DNA from: Escherichia phage vB_EcoM_G2248
Reading direction: 5' to 3' (one strand)
DNA length: 64,000 bases
Sequence record: MK327932.1
Notes under the pieces: model-generated
Seen by the model: the letters and a program-made list of their open reading frames with translations, nothing else
Told to the model about the DNA's origin: nothing
Database searches by the model: none
Position numbers and translations under genes: made by a program
Shown here: one piece after another, positions 8,840 to 62,412 of the stretch
How the letters are laid out: every line of letters starts with the position of its first letter
Numbering within the stretch: the first letter of the stretch is position 1

Positions 8840-9594
8840 TATAAACCTACCTTCGCTTTCATCAATTCAATCCACGACGCATCAATCGGAAGCCCGTATT
8901 TCACGCGTTCTTTTTGTGCTGGCGTTAAGTTCTCATACTTAGAAAGAGATTCAATCAAAACGCTGGTATATTTTAGCACGATTTCGGTATTGTTTGCAAT
9001 AGCCTTGAGTTTTTCCTCTTTCTTGTTGATTTCGCTAAGGGCTTGCTTGAGATCTGCAATTTTCTGATAACGTTCTTCCATACGGAAGATAGTATTTTTA
9101 ATCGCTCGCTCGGCTGCCTCTGCTTTCTCCGGTTCGTTGTGCTTTTTGTGGCGCTCGATTGCTAATTTCTTTTCTTCGATTGCTATTTCCTGATTTTTGA
9201 TGCGATTCTCGTTAAGTTCGATCCACTCGATGTACTTCGCACGTAGGGCAATTTCATCATCAGAAAGTTTACCGTTAGTTCCTAGTTCCTGAATCTCTTT
9301 AAGAGATTCGATAGTGTGATTGCCACGGAAAGAATTATATTTCAGTTTAACCGGAATTACATTGCCATCAACATATCCCAGATTGCAATCAATGCGCTCT
9401 AAGGAGAGTCCGTCATCACCTTCACCGAAAGCCTCACCTGAATAGGCGCAATGAGTCTGACGGTAAATGTTACGCACAGTGACTAAGCTCATAGAGAAGT
9501 CTTTGTTGCGACGTGAAGCGCCAGCCATGATAGAGTTCAGACGGAAAACAACCAGCGCCAGTTCTTCGTTAGATTTAAAAGCAAACAGTTTCAT
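8839..9594 (-). CDS. hypothetical protein with K/E-rich coiled-coil C-terminus (srd position)
   Basis: 251-aa ORF; ATG at 9592-9594 with GGAGAATCAATTATG; promoter cassette at 9624-9652. Confidence 0.5.
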   Translation of the reverse strand: MKLFAFKSNEELALVVFRLNSIMAGASRRNKDFSMSLVTVRNIYRQTHCAYSGEAFGEGDDGLSLERIDCNLGYVDGNVIPVKLKYNSFRGNHTIESLKEIQELGTNGKLSDDEIALRAKYIEWIELNENRIKNQEIAIEEKKLAIERHKKHNEPEKAEAAERAIKNTIFRMEERYQKIADLKQALSEINKKEEKLKAIANNTEIVLKYTSVLIESLSKYENLTPAQKERVKYGLPIDASWIELMKAKVGL

Positions 9595-46892: not shown

Positions 46893-49037
46893 TTATTCAC
46901 GTCCATTTGTATAGTAGTGTTTGAATCGACCGTAACCAGTTTCAATGGTCATTGTTCTTTGGTGAACAATAGCCCAATAACCGTTACAGGAATCTTGCAG
47001 ATACAAATCTTTACCTTTCATAAACTCATTAAAGATTGTTTTCTGCCAGTCATAATAGACAGAATCTTCAATCTTATCCATCCAACCGTGTGGGTCTTCA
47101 AGCAGTTCAACAAGTTCATCGATAACCCAATACGGACACGGACTAAATCGACCTTTACTAAATTCGTTGAACACAGTAACGGTTTTAGCTTCCGGTCTAG
47201 GTTCATCAGGTTCTTCCGGTCGACGATTAACCACAACCTGAACATATTTTGTATAACCGATAATTTCCCCAGAGTCCAACTCATCGTTATTGTTCTGGTC
47301 AGCAAAAGCAACGAATCTATAGACTCCAGAGTCACCTATAGTAGCATTAACTTTTGTGTATATCGGTGTTTTGGGATCGATAATCGGCAACCGAACACCA
47401 TTTTTACTAAACTCATACGTTGGAACGTATGTAGAAGGAGGATTTAATGTCGTTGCTTCTAATGTCAAAGTATCCCCTTCCATAATCTGTACAGGATGAG
47501 GTCCGTCAAATTCCATATTAGGAACAACTTCAACATTATAGGTTGCACGCCCTGCAATATCATAATCATGATGCGCACTATATGGGTCTACACTAGGACT
47601 ATCTCTATATTCATGCGCCCAAATGCCATTATGTTCACGATCCGCAGAGTCAGTAATTTTATACTCTTTAGCCTCAATTGGTAGTTCGGTCACAAAAACA
47701 TCATTTTTTGTTATAACCAAAGAACGAGTTTGAGTAAAATCGCTACTTGCGGGTGGCTCTGGATCGACGATCTTAATAACAATAGGTTCACCAACCTCAA
47801 TATTTCGATAATCGTATTCTTTGTCATAAATGTCAAGCATACGACGGTCGTAAAATAATGGCCTTCCTTTATTGAGGTCATATGCACCATCTTGATTAGA
47901 AGGGGCAACTAGTAATTGTAAAGCAACGCTATTATCATACTGCAAGTCCGATAAAGTAATTCGGTCATAACCTTCATCGCCATATTTTTTGCTTTGTAGA
48001 GTTTTACCACCCAACATCCACGTAAAATAAACATTATTATTAATCAAACTATAATGTCGATTCCACGTATTATCGGATGTTACTAATGGCATATCTAGAT
48101 TGACGGTGGACCCAGAAGGATAACGAAATTCAACGGAATTAAAATCACGATCAAAAAATTCATTGTCTTTGATTGTTACCGTGAATCTATGACGATCACC
48201 ATCAATATATGCTGTCCCTTCTCTGGTTTCACTTGCGGCCTTATATGCACGAACCAAAGCAACATAAACACCCGCATCGGTTTCTTGAGCATGTTTCGTT
48301 ACAAACAGAGTCCTGTCTGTAGATTCATAAATTAAGCTACCATCTTCTCTTTCCAGACGATAACGGACAACGGTATATTCATCATTGGCGGGAGAATCGT
48401 CTGTCACCGTAAAATAGACAGGAGCATATTTCTGTGCGTTAAAAATTTCCGCGCTTTCCTGAATGGTGGCCTCAAACGGATAAACAAATTTCACGTCACC
48501 CGCTTCATCGCTAAGTTCCATTCTATATGTGCCAGAAAATTCAGGCCATGCAAATTTTGCAATTTTAAATTCACGATGGTCTAAACCAAGATCCCCGTCA
48601 ATAGTATCAACAAGACCGTCATTATAATAAAGGTCGATAGAAATGTTTTCTGGGATATGAATACGAAAAACAATTTTAGCCTTTATTTCGTCACCAACCA
48701 CAAAGGAAGTTGGAGGATATACATATTCAACATACTGATTATCAAATAATTCAAATGTGAAATTTTCCGTGCCGATATCAACGGATTCACCAGCAAAATC
48801 ATTATCATCTTGGGCATAGCCACGAACATTAACAGACCATCCTGTTTTATCGCTTTCTTTCACAGATTTTAATTCAAAAGACGGTGTATCGGTTGTAGCA
48901 ACAACCACCCCACCTTTTTTCCAAACATAACCTTTTTTCGGTTTAGTTGGATCATCTGATTCGGCAGCAATTGAGCACGCGAACGTATGAGGAAGCCAAA
49001 TGGTTGTGTTAATGCTAGTATCTTTTACTTCTGGCAT
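46893..49037 (-). CDS. large beta-rich protein, function unknown
   Basis: 714 aa; strong SD GGGGGAA; repetitive beta-strand-like segments and distinct C-terminal domain; followed by terminator 46856-46883. Confidence 0.55.
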   Translation of the reverse strand: MPEVKDTSINTTIWLPHTFACSIAAESDDPTKPKKGYVWKKGGVVVATTDTPSFELKSVKESDKTGWSVNVRGYAQDDNDFAGESVDIGTENFTFELFDNQYVEYVYPPTSFVVGDEIKAKIVFRIHIPENISIDLYYNDGLVDTIDGDLGLDHREFKIAKFAWPEFSGTYRMELSDEAGDVKFVYPFEATIQESAEIFNAQKYAPVYFTVTDDSPANDEYTVVRYRLEREDGSLIYESTDRTLFVTKHAQETDAGVYVALVRAYKAASETREGTAYIDGDRHRFTVTIKDNEFFDRDFNSVEFRYPSGSTVNLDMPLVTSDNTWNRHYSLINNNVYFTWMLGGKTLQSKKYGDEGYDRITLSDLQYDNSVALQLLVAPSNQDGAYDLNKGRPLFYDRRMLDIYDKEYDYRNIEVGEPIVIKIVDPEPPASSDFTQTRSLVITKNDVFVTELPIEAKEYKITDSADREHNGIWAHEYRDSPSVDPYSAHHDYDIAGRATYNVEVVPNMEFDGPHPVQIMEGDTLTLEATTLNPPSTYVPTYEFSKNGVRLPIIDPKTPIYTKVNATIGDSGVYRFVAFADQNNNDELDSGEIIGYTKYVQVVVNRRPEEPDEPRPEAKTVTVFNEFSKGRFSPCPYWVIDELVELLEDPHGWMDKIEDSVYYDWQKTIFNEFMKGKDLYLQDSCNGYWAIVHQRTMTIETGYGRFKHYYTNGRE

Positions 49038-49059: not shown

Positions 49060-49458
49060 TTAAGCCAGTCGAGTGAGTTTATAAATGGTTTTAAAGCATA
49101 GAGCTTTGATATCGTCTAAAACGCTCTGTAACGAGCTATCAACATCATTATAAATCTCACTAGCCATTTGCGTTAACTCTTGCAAATAGGCAATTTCGCT
49201 AATCTCCTTGCGGACGACCAACGTTGGTTGATAACGACCAGTGATCCCAATATTGGTTTCAGTGAAATTATCAACCAATTCTTGCATTTCAAGATAGAAC
49301 TCTTCTAGCGCCTTATGTTTTGCATAAGAACCAGGACCAGTCACCCCAAAATGCGCAGAATGCATATAAGTAACACTCATCAGACATTCACCGATAAAGC
49401 GGTCAACTTTATTAGCTTTCCCGTCTTCGGACGTCTTTCGAAAATCACTGAATTTCAT
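49060..49458 (-). CDS. hypothetical protein, possibly ferritin/Dps-like
   Basis: start at internal ATG with GGAG SD (MKFSDF...); HSAHFGVTGPGSYAKHKALEEFY resembles the Dps H-x12-H ferroxidase helix. Confidence 0.35.
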   Translation of the reverse strand: MKFSDFRKTSEDGKANKVDRFIGECLMSVTYMHSAHFGVTGPGSYAKHKALEEFYLEMQELVDNFTETNIGITGRYQPTLVVRKEISEIAYLQELTQMASEIYNDVDSSLQSVLDDIKALCFKTIYKLTRLA

Positions 49459-49747
49459 GTTCTCGATTCTCCATATTATGCAACATAACAAATTGGTTTG
49501 CGGCATATTCCCCCATAATAAAACACTGCTTAGAGTCCATACATTTACTACGAGCGTACATCTTCATAATGTGGGCATGAAATTTCTGGCTGGTTTCAAT
49601 GGAAGGAGATATTTTGTTTACATATACTATCATCGCACCGTCGAAATAATCAGTAAAGTCACCAGTTAGATCATATTGATCAGCACTGACACTTCCGACC
49701 GCTGTCAAGCATATTGCCGTTGTTAGAGTTTTACGAATAAATGACAT
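49445..49747 (-). CDS. small secreted protein (signal peptide)
   Basis: 100 aa; N-terminal MSFIRKTLTTAICLTAVGSVSA; late-promoter motif TATAAATA about 33 nt upstream. Confidence 0.5.
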   Translation of the reverse strand: MSFIRKTLTTAICLTAVGSVSADQYDLTGDFTDYFDGAMIVYVNKISPSIETSQKFHAHIMKMYARSKCMDSKQCFIMGEYAANQFVMLHNMENREHEIQ

Positions 49748-54589: not shown

Positions 54590-54638
54590 AATTAAACCCT
54601 CAGTTGATTAAGAGATTGCATCATATCATCATAAAACG

Positions 54639-55226: not shown

Positions 55227-55718
55227 TTAGTTGATACCTAAGCCAATGAAAATAGGTTGGTCTTCTACATTACCCATCCCAACACTAAGTCGATTCAATT
55301 CTAAAAACTGCAATACGCTGTCAGTAAATCCGCGCATGGTAGTATCTAGGATAAAAATTGTTTTGTCAAGACTACGACCTCGCCATGTGATCGGATTCAG
55401 GAAAGTTCGGATCGACGTACAATCTACATCTGAAATATTTACATTTTCACCACGACCGCGATCTCGGATCGTTTTGGCATGTTCCCGCGTTGTTGAAACG
55501 ATAAAGACACTATAGCCTTTTCGCGTATAATGGTCATATAACTTGATTGTAGCGTCTGTATGCCCTGTCTGACGGCCTAAATTGATTGAGACAATGGAAT
55601 CTAGGTCATCAGCAAAATTGCGTCGCTTACGGCGTTCCATGATGCCATTTACAGCAGATACACACGCAGCATAAATCAAATCTTTACTTTCTAATTCTAA
55701 ATCAATGTCAATATTCAT
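55227..55718 (-). CDS. hypothetical protein
   Basis: ATG at 55716-55718 with GGAG SD (MNIDIDLELE...). Confidence 0.45.
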   Translation of the reverse strand: MNIDIDLELESKDLIYAACVSAVNGIMERRKRRNFADDLDSIVSINLGRQTGHTDATIKLYDHYTRKGYSVFIVSTTREHAKTIRDRGRGENVNISDVDCTSIRTFLNPITWRGRSLDKTIFILDTTMRGFTDSVLQFLELNRLSVGMGNVEDQPIFIGLGIN

Positions 55719-55780
55719 GGTAAAGTCTCCAGTGAACGGGGAGAGATCCTTAGATTGTCTCCCCATTGATGGTTAATATT

Positions 55781-56356
55781 TTATTTTGGATCTGGGAAAT
55801 TCAATAGAGCATATTCTCCATAAAATTTCCTAGCTGCATTATCATAAGCGATTGCAGCTTCGATTTCTGTGTCATATTGTCCAAGAACATGTCTTTGTAG
55901 GTTGACCATTATACTAGCTCTCCATTTCTTACGCAAATCCTTCCTGTTACACTTACTAACACCCTTATACACACTAGAAAACTTTTTAGACTTCTTCTTT
56001 CTATTATGTTGATTTTGCGCGTCGGTTGCCTCCCTAAGATTTGGAGGATTGTTATTAGCAGGATTACCGTCAATATGATCAATTAATCTAACTTGCGTCC
56101 CATGTTCTAGAAACCAAACAACCCTATGCACGAATAGATGAACTCTAGGAAGACCGTCATCTCTACTATGCCAAAATCTAAGATGACCATCTTTATTTGT
56201 TCTGACTTTAACTAAATCGCCGTGTTTATATCTACTCCCTAATGGTCGTCCTTTGATAGCTTTACTATCGACTCTATAATATAAGATACCCTCTATATGA
56301 GCATATCTAAGTTTTATCTCGTTTTGTAGGGATTCATCCCAATATTTAAAAGCCAT
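55781..56356 (-). CDS. HNH homing endonuclease with C-terminal AP2 DNA-binding domain
   Basis: 191 aa; HNH motif IDHIDGNPANNNPPNLREATDAQNQHN; AP2-like YKGVS...WRASI...YDNAARKFYGEYALLNFP; AT-rich. Confidence 0.75.
   Translation of the reverse strand: MAFKYWDESLQNEIKLRYAHIEGILYYRVDSKAIKGRPLGSRYKHGDLVKVRTNKDGHLRFWHSRDDGLPRVHLFVHRVVWFLEHGTQVRLIDHIDGNPANNNPPNLREATDAQNQHNRKKKSKKFSSVYKGVSKCNRKDLRKKWRASIMVNLQRHVLGQYDTEIEAAIAYDNAARKFYGEYALLNFPDPK
55781..56356 (-). mobile_element. free-standing HNH-AP2 homing endonuclease gene
   Basis: domain architecture typical of phage homing endonucleases; compositional shift; own SD and a hairpin upstream. Confidence 0.5.
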
Positions 56357-56401
56357 TTTATAATCCTCACAAAGCCAGCGATTAAGCTGGCTTGATTTTA
56401 G

Positions 56402-56791
56402 TTATACCGGGTCTGGATATACCTTTTTATCGAGTTCCATATGCGGTCCGTCTTTAAAAGTAACCCAATCAACACCGCAGATAACAGGAACACCCAATTC
56501 TCGACCAGCTTGTTTAAATGCATCCGCGATCATGCGGTAGTATTTCATGTTCCATGTATCCTTATCTTTCGGATACGCTACAACGTCAACCGCGAAACCG
56601 TGAAGATGACGAGATTTCATAGTCTTAGATTTACCTTCCGCAACATATTTCTTTTGCGTTTCTAGACTACGTACACCTTCCGTAATACCAAAATCGACCG
56701 GAGTCAGTTCTAACGCACGATGAACGACTTTTACCAGGTCAGGATGCACACCAACAAGCCGATCTTTGCTTCTTTGAGATAATTTAAACAT
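56402..56791 (-). CDS. peptidase M15-type cell-wall peptidase (candidate endolysin)
   Basis: 129 aa; zinc-ligand pattern SRHLHGFAVD ... DGPHME as in L-Ala-D-Glu peptidase endolysins. Confidence 0.65.
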   Translation of the reverse strand: MFKLSQRSKDRLVGVHPDLVKVVHRALELTPVDFGITEGVRSLETQKKYVAEGKSKTMKSRHLHGFAVDVVAYPKDKDTWNMKYYRMIADAFKQAGRELGVPVICGVDWVTFKDGPHMELDKKVYPDPV

Positions 56792-56819
56792 TATTCACCC
56801 CCTTTGTGAGTGATAATAT

Positions 56820-57011
56820 TTAGATTCCGGCGATCCTGCATAGAGTTCTTGTATTAGCACCAATCAGGATCGCATTAACGACAACCATTCCCCAATCAAC
56901 CCACTGATTATTATAAATGCTAAACCCGTTTGCAAGACCAAATACAAGCATTCCGGTACACATACTCAGAGCAATAATCAACATCACGGTAAAACCAAAT
57001 GCAAATTTCAT
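56820..57011 (-). CDS. small membrane protein
   Basis: 63 aa, two TM-like segments. Confidence 0.45.
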   Translation of the reverse strand: MKFAFGFTVMLIIALSMCTGMLVFGLANGFSIYNNQWVDWGMVVVNAILIGANTRTLCRIAGI

Positions 57012-57012
57012 A

Positions 57013-57279
57013 TTATTTTCCTTTTCTCTGTTTACGTTTATAAAAGTAATACATTACCTCATCACGTCCGGTGATCCAACATGCTAGGGCGGTAAACAGG
57101 TTTACAATTCCCAACACACCTACTGACGCGGCGCTGTCAACAGACATAGGAACAGTAAAGGCCATAGCTAACATAGCAACGCCACAAATGACATTAAGCA
57201 CCATTATAATAAGACCGAAGAAAACCATTGTCAATCCTCCGACACAAGAAAACCAACAATCACGCCAGTGATAAGACAT
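57013..57279 (-). CDS. small membrane protein
   Basis: 88 aa, hydrophobic, basic C-terminus. Confidence 0.45.
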   Translation of the reverse strand: MSYHWRDCWFSCVGGLTMVFFGLIIMVLNVICGVAMLAMAFTVPMSVDSAASVGVLGIVNLFTALACWITGRDEVMYYFYKRKQRKGK

Positions 57280-57422
57280 GATGCGCCGCTAATCAGACAA
57301 CCCGCACCAAGTGATTCCCACCAGATCAGAGAAGCGACAATAACACAGAATCCCCATACTACCGCAATCACAACATAGGCAAGGGTCGCCCAAAACATAT
57401 ATTTGTTCATAATAAATCCCAT
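57231..57422 (-). CDS. small membrane protein
   Basis: 63 aa, hydrophobic. Confidence 0.4.
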   Translation of the reverse strand: MGFIMNKYMFWATLAYVVIAVVWGFCVIVASLIWWESLGAGCLISGASCLITGVIVGFLVSED

Positions 57423-57595
57423 TCACCAAACAAATAAGAAAAAAGCCATATCAACAGAAACGAGGCAATTGATCCGGCAAGCAAAATGATATTAGAGAAT
57501 CCGCCGTCTATCCAGGCGACAAAACAGAATACGCCAGTATAGAAGCATAAACCCATTACAAAGCATACTATAAGCAACCATAGACAAAACGCCAT
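57407..57595 (-). CDS. small membrane protein
   Basis: 62 aa, hydrophobic; GGAGGG SD. Confidence 0.45.
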   Translation of the reverse strand: MAFCLWLLIVCFVMGLCFYTGVFCFVAWIDGGFSNIILLAGSIASFLLIWLFSYLFGEWDLL

Positions 57596-57639
57596 AGAAA
57601 GCCCTCCATCGAGATAAATTAGTGCGGGTAGGGGACTGC

Positions 57640-57798
57640 ACTACCCGCTTTGTTAATCATCGCAGAGCGTGTTCTAGAACGATTCCACACCAACCGCTAA
57701 CCACACCAAAACACACAGCAACAAGCAGATTCATTCGGTCTTTTGGAATCATCGCAAACAGAACAACACCCACACAGAAAGCCATCACCATTGAAGTT
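57640..57798 (-). CDS. small membrane protein (about 52 aa)
   Basis: untracked ORF MVEQMLTSMVMAFCVGVVLFAM...; coordinates approximate. Confidence 0.3.
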
Positions 57799-57817
57799 AA
57801 CATTTGTTCAACCATTA

Positions 57818-58156
57818 TCACACCTTTAAAGTCATAGACGCATAAACATTAATGCCAGGCCAGTTAGGATCGCAATTATACTCAACATCCCACAAATAAA
57901 GCGGTTTAGATGTATCAGCCAAGTTTTTAAAATCTTCTACCCACATTTCAAGGCTATATGATGGATAAACTAGGCTATCATATCCGCCGTAACGTTGGCC
58001 TACTGGTCGGTCAGTAAAAACTACATCAAGATCCGGTAATTCTTTTTCAAGGATAACCGCCAGCGCATAAATCAGACTGTCTTCCTTGTTACGCTGCCGA
58101 AGGACCGTTGTCAGTTGGTTTTTCTGGTTCACTAGCAAGCACCTCCACATTTTCAC
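57818..58156 (-). CDS. hypothetical protein
   Basis: 112-aa ORF; true start likely internal (overlaps upstream ORF). Confidence 0.4.
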   Translation of the reverse strand: MKMWRCLLVNQKNQLTTVLRQRNKEDSLIYALAVILEKELPDLDVVFTDRPVGQRYGGYDSLVYPSYSLEMWVEDFKNLADTSKPLYLWDVEYNCDPNWPGINVYASMTLKV

Positions 58157-58409
58157 AGAATGAAATTTTCACAGACACAATTTTACCATAAGTGAAGAAT
58201 GAATATACATTATCGAGATATTCAACGTCACCTACAATCACATCAAACTGAGGATCAGCCACCGCCGCAACATATTCTACCAGTTCATCAAGAGAATGCA
58301 ACTTAATTTCATCAATTCGGCTGTATTTGGTTGCATCTTTGATTTTAAAACCACGTTCTTTCAGCTTATCAATTAGAATTTCACGCGGAGTTTCAAACAG
58401 TTTGCTCAT
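58089..58409 (-). CDS. hypothetical protein
   Basis: 106-aa ORF. Confidence 0.45.
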   Translation of the reverse strand: MSKLFETPREILIDKLKERGFKIKDATKYSRIDEIKLHSLDELVEYVAAVADPQFDVIVGDVEYLDNVYSFFTYGKIVSVKISFCENVEVLASEPEKPTDNGPSAA

Positions 58410-58430: not shown

Positions 58431-58631
58431 CTAAAATTTGTTAACGACGAATTGCATAATTAGACTAATCACAAACATTGCAAACCAAGTATAAATGCAA
58501 CAGATAAAAGCTACATACAATTCAATCTGGTCAGAGAATACACCGGGTAAAAGCATTAGCAAAATAACAACAGTAAAAACGCTAGCGATACCCGCAACAA
58601 AACCAATATCATTTTTACTAATCGTCATCAA
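58431..58631 (-). CDS. small membrane protein
   Basis: 66 aa, two TM-like segments. Confidence 0.45.
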   Translation of the reverse strand: MMTISKNDIGFVAGIASVFTVVILLMLLPGVFSDQIELYVAFICCIYTWFAMFVISLIMQFVVNKF

Positions 58632-58825
58632 GTCACCGTTTTGTAAAGAAACACAATAAAATCCCAGACAAAAAAGACAGTGAAAATAATCATCGTCAAG
58701 ACAATAAACACTGTCAGATTTTCATCGTTAGTTAATTCATGACCGTCCATCCATATAATCACCAGATAAAACATCGAAATCAAGGAGGCGAATACCAAAT
58801 TATAAAACTCTTCCTTTAATGACAT
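58628..58825 (-). CDS. small membrane protein
   Basis: 65 aa. Confidence 0.45.
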   Translation of the reverse strand: MSLKEEFYNLVFASLISMFYLVIIWMDGHELTNDENLTVFIVLTMIIFTVFFVWDFIVFLYKTVT

Positions 58826-58826
58826 A

Positions 58827-59009
58827 CTACACCTCGTCGCGGCTTAAGTCAACAGCAATTGCATACAGCATAATGAATATGCTAGCCGATCCGAGAATCA
58901 ATACACCCTCACATTTTGAAACTCGCTCATCAAAATGTAACATTATCCATCCGAGGATGTTAAAGGCGCAGACCGCGCCTATGTTCGCTAACCAATTAAT
59001 CTTTTTCAT
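58827..59009 (-). CDS. small membrane protein
   Basis: 60 aa. Confidence 0.4.
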   Translation of the reverse strand: MKKINWLANIGAVCAFNILGWIMLHFDERVSKCEGVLILGSASIFIMLYAIAVDLSRDEV

Positions 59010-59344: not shown

Positions 59345-59386
59345 TTTGATACTCCTTAGTAGTTCGTGTTTCGTTTCGATGGGTGT

Positions 59387-59415
59387 ATTATGCTATACAC
59401 CCTCTCTCGTGTCAA
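59387..59415 (-). promoter_or_regulatory. early promoter
   Basis: TTGACA-N17-CATAAT then ACACCCATCGAAACGAAACAC leader. Confidence 0.55.
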
Positions 59416-59423
59416 CAACTTTT

Positions 59424-59612
59424 TTAGTCTTTTTTCATAATTTCTAGAGCAGTTTCTACAGCACCTTTCCAACCTTCCCACATAATGGACATAGTAAGGA
59501 AGTTAAAGCACCCGCAGGAATCAACCTTTTTAGAGATAAACCATTCTACAAACGCTTCGCTCATACCATGCTCTTTAGCGGATTCGCGTAATTGTTCAAT
59601 TTGGTCTTCCAT
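59424..59612 (-). CDS. hypothetical protein
   Basis: 62-aa ORF. Confidence 0.4.
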   Translation of the reverse strand: MEDQIEQLRESAKEHGMSEAFVEWFISKKVDSCGCFNFLTMSIMWEGWKGAVETALEIMKKD

Positions 59613-60312: not shown

Positions 60313-60358
60313 AATTTGATTCTCCGTTTAAGAAAGTGTGTTTCGTTTCGATGGGTGT

Positions 60359-60387
60359 ATTATGCTATAGGCCGGATCTGGTGTCAA
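60359..60387 (-). promoter_or_regulatory. early promoter
   Basis: TTGACA-N17-CATAAT then ACACCCATCGAAACGAAACAC leader. Confidence 0.55.
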
Positions 60388-60415
60388 CAACTTTTTTAAA
60401 AAAATTTTAGGCAAT

Positions 60416-62310: not shown

Positions 62311-62347
62311 TTTGATTCTCCTAAGTGTGTTTCGTTTCGATATGTGC

Positions 62348-62376
62348 ATTATGCTATAGTCGTTTATGGTTGTCAA
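62348..62376 (-). promoter_or_regulatory. early promoter
   Basis: TTGACA-N17-CATAAT then GCACATATCGAAACGAAACAC leader. Confidence 0.55.
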
Positions 62377-62385
62377 CACCTAAAA

Positions 62386-62412
62386 ACAAAAAACCCCGAA
62401 AAATTTTCGGGG
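62386..62412 (-). terminator. rho-independent terminator after the Acb1-like gene
   Basis: hairpin CCCCGAAAA-UU-UUUUCGGGG + U-run, 8 nt after stop. Confidence 0.6.

Follow-up and report, generated by a model that had tools for sequence, protein, structure and literature searches.

A T5-type endolysin in the gene e slot of a Krischvirus genome, its predicted timing hairpin and the small membrane-protein genes upstream

Genome setting and gene content of the locus

The stretch of DNA considered here, henceforth called the window, comprises 64,000 nucleotides of the sequence record MK327932.1 of Escherichia phage vB_EcoM_G2248 and represents the first 64 kb of a Krischvirus genome, i.e., of an RB49/JSE-like T4-type coliphage of the Straboviridae. 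The locus in question lies at positions 56402-57595 and consists of a gene coding for a zinc peptidase of the M15 type and of four genes for small membrane proteins upstream of it, and an earlier note, made without database searches, had suggested that this arrangement may be either the lysis cassette or a superinfection/immunity module of the phage. With respect to Escherichia phage JSE, whose genome is 98% identical, the window keeps the same gene order over its full length, from rIIA to gene 1 (colinear), and the region from 55700 to 58200 shares 98.8% identity with JSE and 96-98% identity with about 58 other Krischvirus genomes. Nearly all genes of the window reside on the minus strand, as in the early arm of T4.

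All five open reading frames (ORFs) named in the note are present on the minus strand at the coordinates given there. The peptidase gene (56402-56791) codes for a protein of 129 amino acids (aa) of the M15 type, with the motifs SRHLHGFAVD...DGPHME containing the residues H62, D69, D114 and H117. The four genes upstream, here designated m1 to m4, are real membrane-protein genes as claimed, but their products measure 63, 71, 59 and 62 aa instead of 62-88 aa, their starts having been reset from PHROG matches, the JSE and RB49 annotations, and ribosome-binding sites. In particular, the supposed 88-aa ORF is a 71-aa gene starting at 57228, where a GGAGGA Shine-Dalgarno sequence is found and where the PHROG match as well as the JSE and RB49 annotations begin, and the supposed 63-aa ORF at 57231-57422 is to be read from 57410, which gives a gene of 59 aa whose start shares an ATGA with the gene upstream. 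The resulting predicted two-transmembrane (two-TM) proteins are m1 (63 aa, 56820-57011, RB49 ORF103c, phrog_15016), m2 (71 aa, 57013-57228, ORF104c, phrog_15232), m3 (59 aa, 57231-57410, ORF105c, phrog_16151), whose start overlaps the stop codon of m4 (ATGA), and m4 (62 aa, 57407-57595, ORF106c, phrog_19354), which contains no lysine or arginine and five cysteines. The count of four was too low, as a fifth membrane gene, m5 (52 aa, two TM, 57657-57815, minus strand, ORF107c, phrog_16035), lies directly upstream.

The M15 peptidase as endolysin

By its Pfam, PHROG and PDB matches the product of the gene at 56402-56791 is an M15C L-alanoyl-D-glutamate peptidase of the EndoRB49 type. It matches Pfam Peptidase_M15_4 (PF13539) at 33.9 bits (cutoff 25) and PHROG 465, annotated as 'endolysin', at 5.5e-63, and its best match in the PDB is 23ri (EndoRB49, E = 2e-77), to which residues 1-103 are identical; the 23ri sequence in turn corresponds to RB49 ORF102c and to the published EndoRB49 mutagenesis primers. 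The next PDB matches are 8q2g, another Krischvirus allele, followed by ChiX (5opz, E = 2e-32) and EndoT5 (2mxz, E = 3e-20), so that the assignment of the peptidase to the T5 type in the note is borne out. H62, D69, D114 and H117 align with H66, D73, D130 and H133 of EndoT5 as well as with EndoRB49, and both the zinc-ligand motif H-x6-D and the catalytic/ligand motif D-x-x-H are thus present; W109 is also retained. No signal or signal-anchor-release (SAR) sequence, hydrophobic segment or hydrophobic N-terminus was found in the protein, and a holin is therefore needed for its release.

Compared with EndoRB49 (RB49 ORF102c, PDB 23ri, MEROPS M15C), the window endolysin is the product of the same gene in the same genus, with the same length of 129 aa and the same zinc-binding and catalytic residues including Trp109. 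It differs in the C-terminal tail, which reads VEWGGDWTSF..HLQLPHSKYPDPK in EndoRB49 and VICGVDWVTF..HMELDKKVYPDPV in the window, where it derives from a homing-endonuclease cassette (see below). ChiX of Serratia marcescens is nearer to the window peptidase than EndoT5 and yet is a bacterial protein, an L-Ala-D-Glu endopeptidase that serves a holin-like chitinase secretion system and not phage lysis. EndoT5, the lys product of phage T5, shares the fold family, the bond specificity and the H-x6-D ... D-x-x-H motifs (PMC10487532), although its identity to the window endolysin is only distant, and it is activated by Ca2+ via a loop that is absent from EndoRB49 (PMC10487532).

Studies of EndoRB49, an L-alanoyl-D-glutamate peptidase, have addressed the tryptophan of its active site and its activity towards a peptidoglycan mimetic, according to the passages of PMC8140593 and PMC10487532 that cite Mikoulinskaia 2018. 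In line with the muralytic activity of the RB49 orthologue described in these passages, the M15 peptidase can be taken as the phage's endolysin and as its substitute for T4 lysozyme, and by analogy the allele of the window would also be muralytic; the same type of allele, with the C-terminus associated with the homing-endonuclease gene (HEG), is carried by 13 viable isolates including JSE. The observation made in the note is correct, while the enzyme and its role are already known: that RB49-like T4-type phages lyse their hosts by a T5-type L-Ala-D-Glu peptidase instead of T4 lysozyme is in the literature, and structures have been solved. Overall, this part of the locus is known biology and of modest value.

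The gene e slot and the remaining lysis genes

In T4, the gene order in the direction of transcription is 57B, ipI, tRNAs, e.8-e.2, nudE, e, ipIII, ipII, denV, vs.8, vs.7, vs.6 ... regB, vs.1, vs, tk, rI, and in the window it is 57B, dmd, small ORFs, M15 peptidase, (HNH), vs.8, vs.6, nrdC.11 ... regB, vs.1, vs, tk, rI. In Morganella phage MP1 the order nudE-x-x-M15-...-vs.6-denV-regB is found, the homologous peptidase being located two genes past the nudE homologue. From the shared frame between 57B and vs.8 and from the order in MP1 it follows that the M15 gene occupies the slot of gene e and is an in-place non-orthologous replacement of it. Thus, the window endolysin and T4 e share the genomic slot and the strand, and in both cases membrane-protein genes lie upstream (e.3 and e.4 in T4), whereas the enzymes are unrelated, being a GH24 muramidase in T4 and an M15 peptidase in the window.

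As stated in the note, there is no gene e in the window: a tblastn search with T4 lysozyme yielded nothing there, and in JSE, taken as a proxy for the whole genome, only the tail-lysozyme domain of gp5, outside the region covered by the window. Two stretches of JSE (about 0.9 and 1.1 kb) were left out of this search, the first of which is covered by the window and the second of which falls on JSE gene 3 and an annotated endonuclease ORF. RB49, phi1, RB16 and RB43 have likewise been listed as lacking gene e, with 'no apparent gene e' in RB49 and phi1 (PMC3014915).

The genome-wide search for e and t homologues proposed in the note thus returned no e apart from the gp5 domain, and it did return t. 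JSE encodes a T holin after the tail-fibre genes, i.e., at the T4 position (PF11031, 1.6e-60), and the PseT.2 and PseT.3 spanins, likewise at their T4 positions (PHROGs 812 and 739). The window itself carries rIIA and, at 49445-49747 on the minus strand, a homologue of the RI antiholin (Pfam PF24205, 1.8e-22; PHROG 1246), with an exact late-promoter box TATAAATA at 49788-49781, 41 nt ahead of its start. Of the T4 lysis set, only the endolysin is therefore swapped. With the T holin and PseT.2/PseT.3 accounted for in JSE, RI in the window and no family match among the four membrane proteins, the suggestion that these act as holin, antiholin or spanins could not be upheld.

A late-promoter-like box and a predicted hairpin at the endolysin start

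Between m1 and the peptidase gene, a late-promoter-like box, TCTAAATA, is found at 56824-56817, where it overlaps the stop codon of m1 and precedes the ATG of the endolysin gene by 33 nt; it is the sole copy in the window. The RNA from this box to just past the AUG is predicted to fold into a translation-initiation hairpin of 15 bp (56783-56826, minus strand), the 5' arm of which holds TCTAAATA and the 3' arm of which holds the Shine-Dalgarno sequence AGGGGGTGA together with the AUG. Its free energy is -12.5 kcal/mol (z = -3.4), and none of 200 shuffled sequences folded as well. When the same procedure was applied to T4 e as a control, it gave -14.9 kcal/mol (z = -4.5). Among the 122 start regions of the window that of the endolysin is the third most structured, and the top one among those in which the structure covers both the Shine-Dalgarno sequence and the AUG, since the two higher-ranked regions represent upstream terminator hairpins with a mostly unpaired stretch from Shine-Dalgarno sequence to AUG. 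Together with its flanks, the 28-nt spacer between m1 and the peptidase gene forms a 36-nt run that is invariant in five diverged genomes; the 1-kb operon contains just one other run of this kind.

Related arrangements exist elsewhere. The peptidase gene of MP1 is preceded by AATAAATA and then by a hairpin over the AUG (z = -4.6), and in two diverged Krischvirus variants (L014 and L016) the hairpin has 18 bp (z = -6.2), an AAA>AGA change in codon 3 creating a C-G pair. The design was noted in the records L014, L016, L018 and L006 and in T4 at 8988-9035 (L017). A metagenome scan for further variants of this translation-initiation region returned only two more Krischvirus contigs, both of the common type. 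With regard to the box itself, 10 of the 12 exact TATAAATA copies in a composite Krischvirus genome lie 28-45 nt before the starts of late genes or rI. In the same genome, gene 23 has AATAAATA at -41, the holin gene t has CCTAAATA at -42, and gene 37 has TCTAAATA, the box found at the endolysin, at -43 directly after a terminator.

The T4 e paradigm of hairpin and late promoter has been reviewed (PMC3014915). In T4, the Shine-Dalgarno sequence and the AUG of the read-through early mRNA are masked by a hairpin whose 5' arm includes a late box (PMC3014915), and the design predicted for the window endolysin is the same; however, T4 e has two exact late boxes and the window endolysin a single variant box. 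The endolysin of the window thus appears to keep a control of the T4 e style. A non-orthologous endolysin would then seem to have inherited or re-evolved the timing device of T4 e, which, if confirmed, would mean that the way in which a locus is regulated can persist after the gene under its control has been exchanged.

As a separate observation, TATAAATA is strongly avoided throughout the window, the expected numbers being 5.8 for exact copies and 128 for copies with one mismatch, and the observed ones 2 and 78, respectively.

The small membrane-protein genes

The genes m1 to m4 follow one another closely, being separated by 1-2 nt or overlapping at ATGA, and each product has two hydrophobic segments and loops of at most 14 aa. 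The C-terminal tail is charged in m2, weakly so in m1, and acidic or missing in m3 and m4; that of m2 is basic and invariant (YYFYKRKQRKGK), which makes m2 the most holin-like in shape of the four. Further upstream, m6, m7 and m8 (58431-59009, minus strand, RB49 ORF110c-112c) code for additional two-TM proteins of 60-65 aa. In total, 12 of the 15 small (up to 110 aa) hydrophobic ORFs of the window cluster between 56820 and 61550, i.e., in 4.7 kb or 7% of the sequence, and each of these 12 has a PHROG family of its own, none with a known function. Such stretches of T4-like phages have been termed hyperplastic regions (PMC2839356, PMC4122927).

The four genes next to the endolysin are intact in 57-58 of 58 Krischvirus records, m1 in all 58, and are found in no others. 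The ratio of nonsynonymous to synonymous polymorphism (pN/pS) ranges from 0.18 to 0.54 among seven isolates and from 0.16 to 0.36 against diverged metagenomic relatives with pS of up to 0.45, with values of 0.19-0.27 for m1, 0.16-0.33 for m2 and the highest for m4. In the diverged contigs the order of products of 62, 59, 71, 63 and 129 aa is kept. In phage Whisky (L002, 4582-4887), a 1-nt indel disrupts m4, and a single ORF of 306 nt, apparently an altered m4 frame, is annotated there, which suggests that m4 is dispensable. That m1 to m4 might not be genes, being open merely by chance in an AT-rich spacer ahead of the endolysin gene, could be argued from their shortness, their hydrophobicity and their annotation as merely hypothetical, but this is scarcely credible and is refuted by the pattern of conservation, by the Shine-Dalgarno sites and the ATGA coupling, and by the separate PHROG family of each. 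Since they are intact and have pN/pS values of 0.16-0.54, m1 to m4 are, judged by these patterns, real genes under purifying selection.

No family of known function was found for m1 to m8 in Pfam (E up to 10), NCBIfam or PHROGs, the PHROG hits being genus-specific families without a function. For m1 to m4, the best matches to holin families were Phage_holin_3_5 with E = 0.18 (12.4 bits, cutoff 27) and Phage_holin_3_6 with E = 0.96, and no spanin, antiholin or Imm match was obtained in Pfam, PHROGs or NCBIfam; m1 to m5 also gave no match to the RI antiholin family PF24205. In the case of Imm, Pfam was searched at E up to 10, and T4 Imm as a tblastn query gave no hit to the window or to JSE, although tblastn is insensitive at such a distance and also missed the RI homologue that was found by Pfam. 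For m2, a search of 5.8 billion proteins and a profile search of 1.84 billion representatives returned only its own cluster, made up of Krischvirus-like contigs.

Of several other origins or roles considered, descent of m1 to m8 from tandem duplication was rejected, as Smith-Waterman comparisons against shuffled sequences gave z below 3 for every pair. Spanins were rejected for m1 to m4 as well, as proteins of 59-71 aa with two TM segments have neither the long periplasmic domain of an i-spanin nor a canonical o-spanin lipobox. A conserved lipobox-like LSMC does occur after the N-terminal hydrophobic stretch of m1 (residues 15-18, 56962-56973), with a non-canonical Met at -1. Because of this deviation and because the rest of the protein is hydrophobic, m1 seems unlikely to be an o-spanin. 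Co-transfer with the peptidase was likewise rejected: a phmmer comparison of m1 to m8 with the ORFs within 2.5 kb on either side of 79 other viral M15 loci, with the T4 e region and with three T4-like genera found nothing. In MP1, RB16 and a Slopekvirus, soluble-protein genes lie upstream of the homologous peptidase, and the conserved neighbour is the downstream vs.8-like gene. Judged by gene neighbourhood, m1 to m4 are thus not partners of the peptidase, and their absence beside it in other T4-like genera and at the 79 other viral loci further weakens the reading as a lysis cassette.

Of note, a 56-nt run at 57008-57063 (minus strand), comprising the 3' end of m2 and the ribosome-binding site of m1, is invariant in the five diverged genomes, synonymous sites included; no significant RNA structure was found for it (z = +0.6 to +2.1).

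The predicted early transcription unit

The nearest early promoter of the sigma-70 type upstream of the endolysin gene is a PeSL-type cassette at 59366-59426 on the minus strand (TTGACA-17-CATAAT followed by a conserved leader). This 61-nt cassette occurs in three copies (59366-59426, 60338-60398 and 62327-62387) with the leader ACACCCATCGAAACGAAACAC, at least the middle one of which is preceded by a terminator hairpin (60441-60420), and the copies fit the PeSL elements described in RB49 and phi1 (PMC2839356). In phage GEC-3S a promoter is annotated at the place corresponding to 59426-59366, and the next terminator follows vs.6. Between this promoter and the endolysin gene only one hairpin is present, GCGGGTAG-loop-CTACCCGC, located between m5 and m4 (57624-57648, minus strand), with a conserved stem, a variable loop and no T-run. 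From the lone promoter upstream and the lack of a T-run at this hairpin we therefore infer a single early transcript that would run through m8 ... m1 and the endolysin gene. This agrees with the co-expression of novel ORFs with early genes in T4-like phages and with the lack of a middle mode in RB49 (PMC1524935). No late box of the TATAAATA type was detected between 59366 and m1, the only candidate being the one after m1, and Rfam and tRNA scans of the region gave nothing above threshold.

A model of the locus and its alternatives

Taken together, the locus is likely to represent the Krischvirus endolysin in the slot of T4 e with an e-like timing, abutting the downstream end of a hyperplastic region rich in membrane proteins, with m1 to m4 as early accessory genes and not as lysis machinery. 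According to this model, the endolysin would reach the cell wall only once the T-type holin, which would be encoded elsewhere as in T4 and would be controlled by the RI antiholin encoded in the window, opens the inner membrane, whereupon the PseT.3/PseT.2 spanins would breach the outer membrane. Long early transcripts would begin about 2.6 kb upstream and read through the membrane-protein genes, and in these the ribosome-binding site and AUG of the endolysin gene would be folded in the hairpin. Late transcripts would start about 6 nt past the TCTAAATA box, near 56811 by the T4 rule, and, with most of the 5' arm missing, would be translatable. If so, the late endolysin mRNA would exclude m1 to m4, which are predicted to belong to the early unit, and this is a further argument against a shared lysis role.

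Several points weigh against this interpretation. Three of its elements, namely a late promoter, read-through of early transcripts and a block of translation, are predictions from the sequence; the second position of the box TCTAAATA does not conform to the T4 consensus, and when 91 nt are folded the result is no better than for shuffled sequences (z = -0.8), the local fold alone being significant. The hairpin region is invariant, and compensatory-looking variation is seen in a sole variant type. A near-consensus sigma-70 promoter (TTGACA-17-TATTAT, 57234-57206) in the m3/m2 junction may complicate the pattern of transcripts. As for the enzyme, the window endolysin differs from the assayed EndoRB49 at 13 of the last 26 residues, including W105C and G107V. 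Finally, m2 resembles a class II holin in its size, its predicted two-helix layout and its charged tail, and its gene is the second one upstream of that of the endolysin, which leaves room for a role of m2 in the timing of lysis.

The latter consideration leads to an auxiliary lysis cassette in which one or more of m1 to m4, above all m2, would act as holin, pinholin or antiholin and release or time the endolysin alongside the T holin or in its place. In most phages the holin gene neighbours the endolysin gene, and the order of m2 and the endolysin gene is kept in all 58 Krischvirus records and in the diverged contigs; m2, with its 71 aa, two TM segments and invariant basic tail, also resembles class II holins and pinholins such as S21 68 of phage 21. 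However, m2 differs from these in that it belongs to no such sequence family and lacks both a late promoter and a dual start, the latter being a motif absent from all of m1 to m4, and pinholins serve SAR endolysins, to which the window endolysin does not belong. Further, a full T4-type set (T, RI, the spanins and rIIA/B) is already present, no holin family is matched, the sole late box lies after m1 so that the late endolysin transcript would exclude m1 to m4, and a holin would be harmful in the early unit to which these genes are assigned. With soluble proteins upstream of the same endolysin in other T4-like genera and no related ORF near the 79 other M15 loci in addition, such a cassette is quite improbable. 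Somewhat better placed, though still unlikely, is a superinfection-exclusion or immunity module, in which small early inner-membrane proteins would be functional counterparts of T4 Imm and Sp and would block the DNA entry or the envelope attack of secondary phages. Like Imm and Sp, m1 to m4 are small, early, envelope-located accessory proteins, and their predicted two-helix layout is that of Imm, a two-TM hairpin of 83 aa with two hydrophobic segments. They are also genus-specific and variable, as exclusion genes are, an Imm homologue was not found by the (insensitive) tblastn search of the window and JSE, and the cluster of 12 such genes lies in a hyperplastic region, which are said to carry adaptive functions (PMC4122927). 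On the other side, neither Pfam Imm_superinfect nor any other family is matched, homology to Imm or Sp is not detectable and the genomic position is different, and the same features would fit anti-defence, inhibition of transporters or membrane remodelling equally.

Since m1 to m4 lie in the early unit, since the T4 lysis set is complete and since their distribution is restricted to the genus, accessory early envelope proteins are preferred over lysis proteins. As preferred here, m1 to m4 are probably genus-specific, mutually unrelated two-helix inner-membrane proteins that are expressed early and have an accessory function; our best guess, held with low confidence, is an action on the envelope of the host in the early phase of infection, e.g., by superinfection exclusion or by modulating host membrane proteins. 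A bolder version, which we consider a long shot, is that m1 to m8 and the four further genes between 56820 and 61550 form an early envelope-targeting battery with m2 as the founder of a new holin/pinholin-like family. If true, it would provide superinfection exclusion in Krischvirus or a second, T-independent control over the access of the M15 endolysin to the wall. The dozen conserved small membrane proteins, which have no relatives, could be screened at little cost by deletion and expression.

A homing-endonuclease cassette at the 3' end of the endolysin gene

The divergent tail of the window endolysin is part of a homing-endonuclease cassette at 55797-56482 (minus strand), which consists of a replacement 3' end of the endolysin gene (codons 104-129), a hairpin and an HNH-AP2 ORF (56356-55781). 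Homology to RB49, which lacks the HEG, ends after GTTCCTGTT (window position 56483) and resumes at 55796 with CCCAGATCCAAAATAA, with 92% identity over 102 nt. The 686-nt cassette has thus replaced 65 nt (endolysin codons 104 to about 125) and brought in a substitute terminus (56482-56402), while a relic of the original terminus, CCCAGATCCAAAATAA = PDPK* at 55781-55796 (minus strand), now supplies the last codons of the HNH ORF. The HNH-AP2 gene directly follows the endolysin gene in 13 of 58 Krischvirus records, the window included, and in exactly these 13 the endolysin diverges from codon 104 onwards.

In the new tail (..ICGVDW..HMELDKKVYPDPV) the catalytic D-x-x-H motif is preserved, and the substitutions of this tail do not go beyond the variation that RB16 (FGINW) and other relatives show. 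As to the donor of the variant 3' end, blastn with the junction retrieved only the 13 HEG-bearing Krischvirus records; two relatives (L038 and L039) have tails ending in ...ELDRKVYP, and none has ICGVDW. In the HEG-less endolysin allele, a putative site of cleavage by the HNH-AP2 protein would lie around GTTGAATGGGGTGGGGATTGG. Free-standing homing endonucleases of T4-like phages such as SegF and MobE ('intronless homing') similarly reside next to a conserved gene or within it, flanked by a divergent target (PMC2988022), whereas the cassette of the window comes with a substitute 3' end for its host gene and runs on into what is left of the old terminus. The replacement endolysin end therefore offers a natural pair of alleles with which to study endonuclease targeting and the degree to which the rim of the active site tolerates change.

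For the HNH gene, too, a structured start region is predicted (56345-56395, minus strand; z = -2.4, sixth of the 122 start regions), the arm AAGCCAGC of which can pair either with GCTGGCTT or with the start-codon sequence AUGGCUU, which is reminiscent of the sequestration of ribosome-binding sites in other phage homing endonucleases. Elsewhere, between nrdC.11 and vs.6, the window (54602-54619) lacks a homing endonuclease that JSE carries at 55282-55812, and the content of homing endonucleases thus varies between genomes that are otherwise 98% identical.

A further difference from JSE

Outside the locus, an ORF of 714 aa (46893-49037, minus strand) lies in a stretch of about 2 kb that has no counterpart in JSE. 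No Pfam family matches it, and the only PHROG hit, Hoc-like and weak, is confined to its C-terminus; at the corresponding place JSE carries a gene of 258 aa annotated as 'tail fiber; host specificity'.

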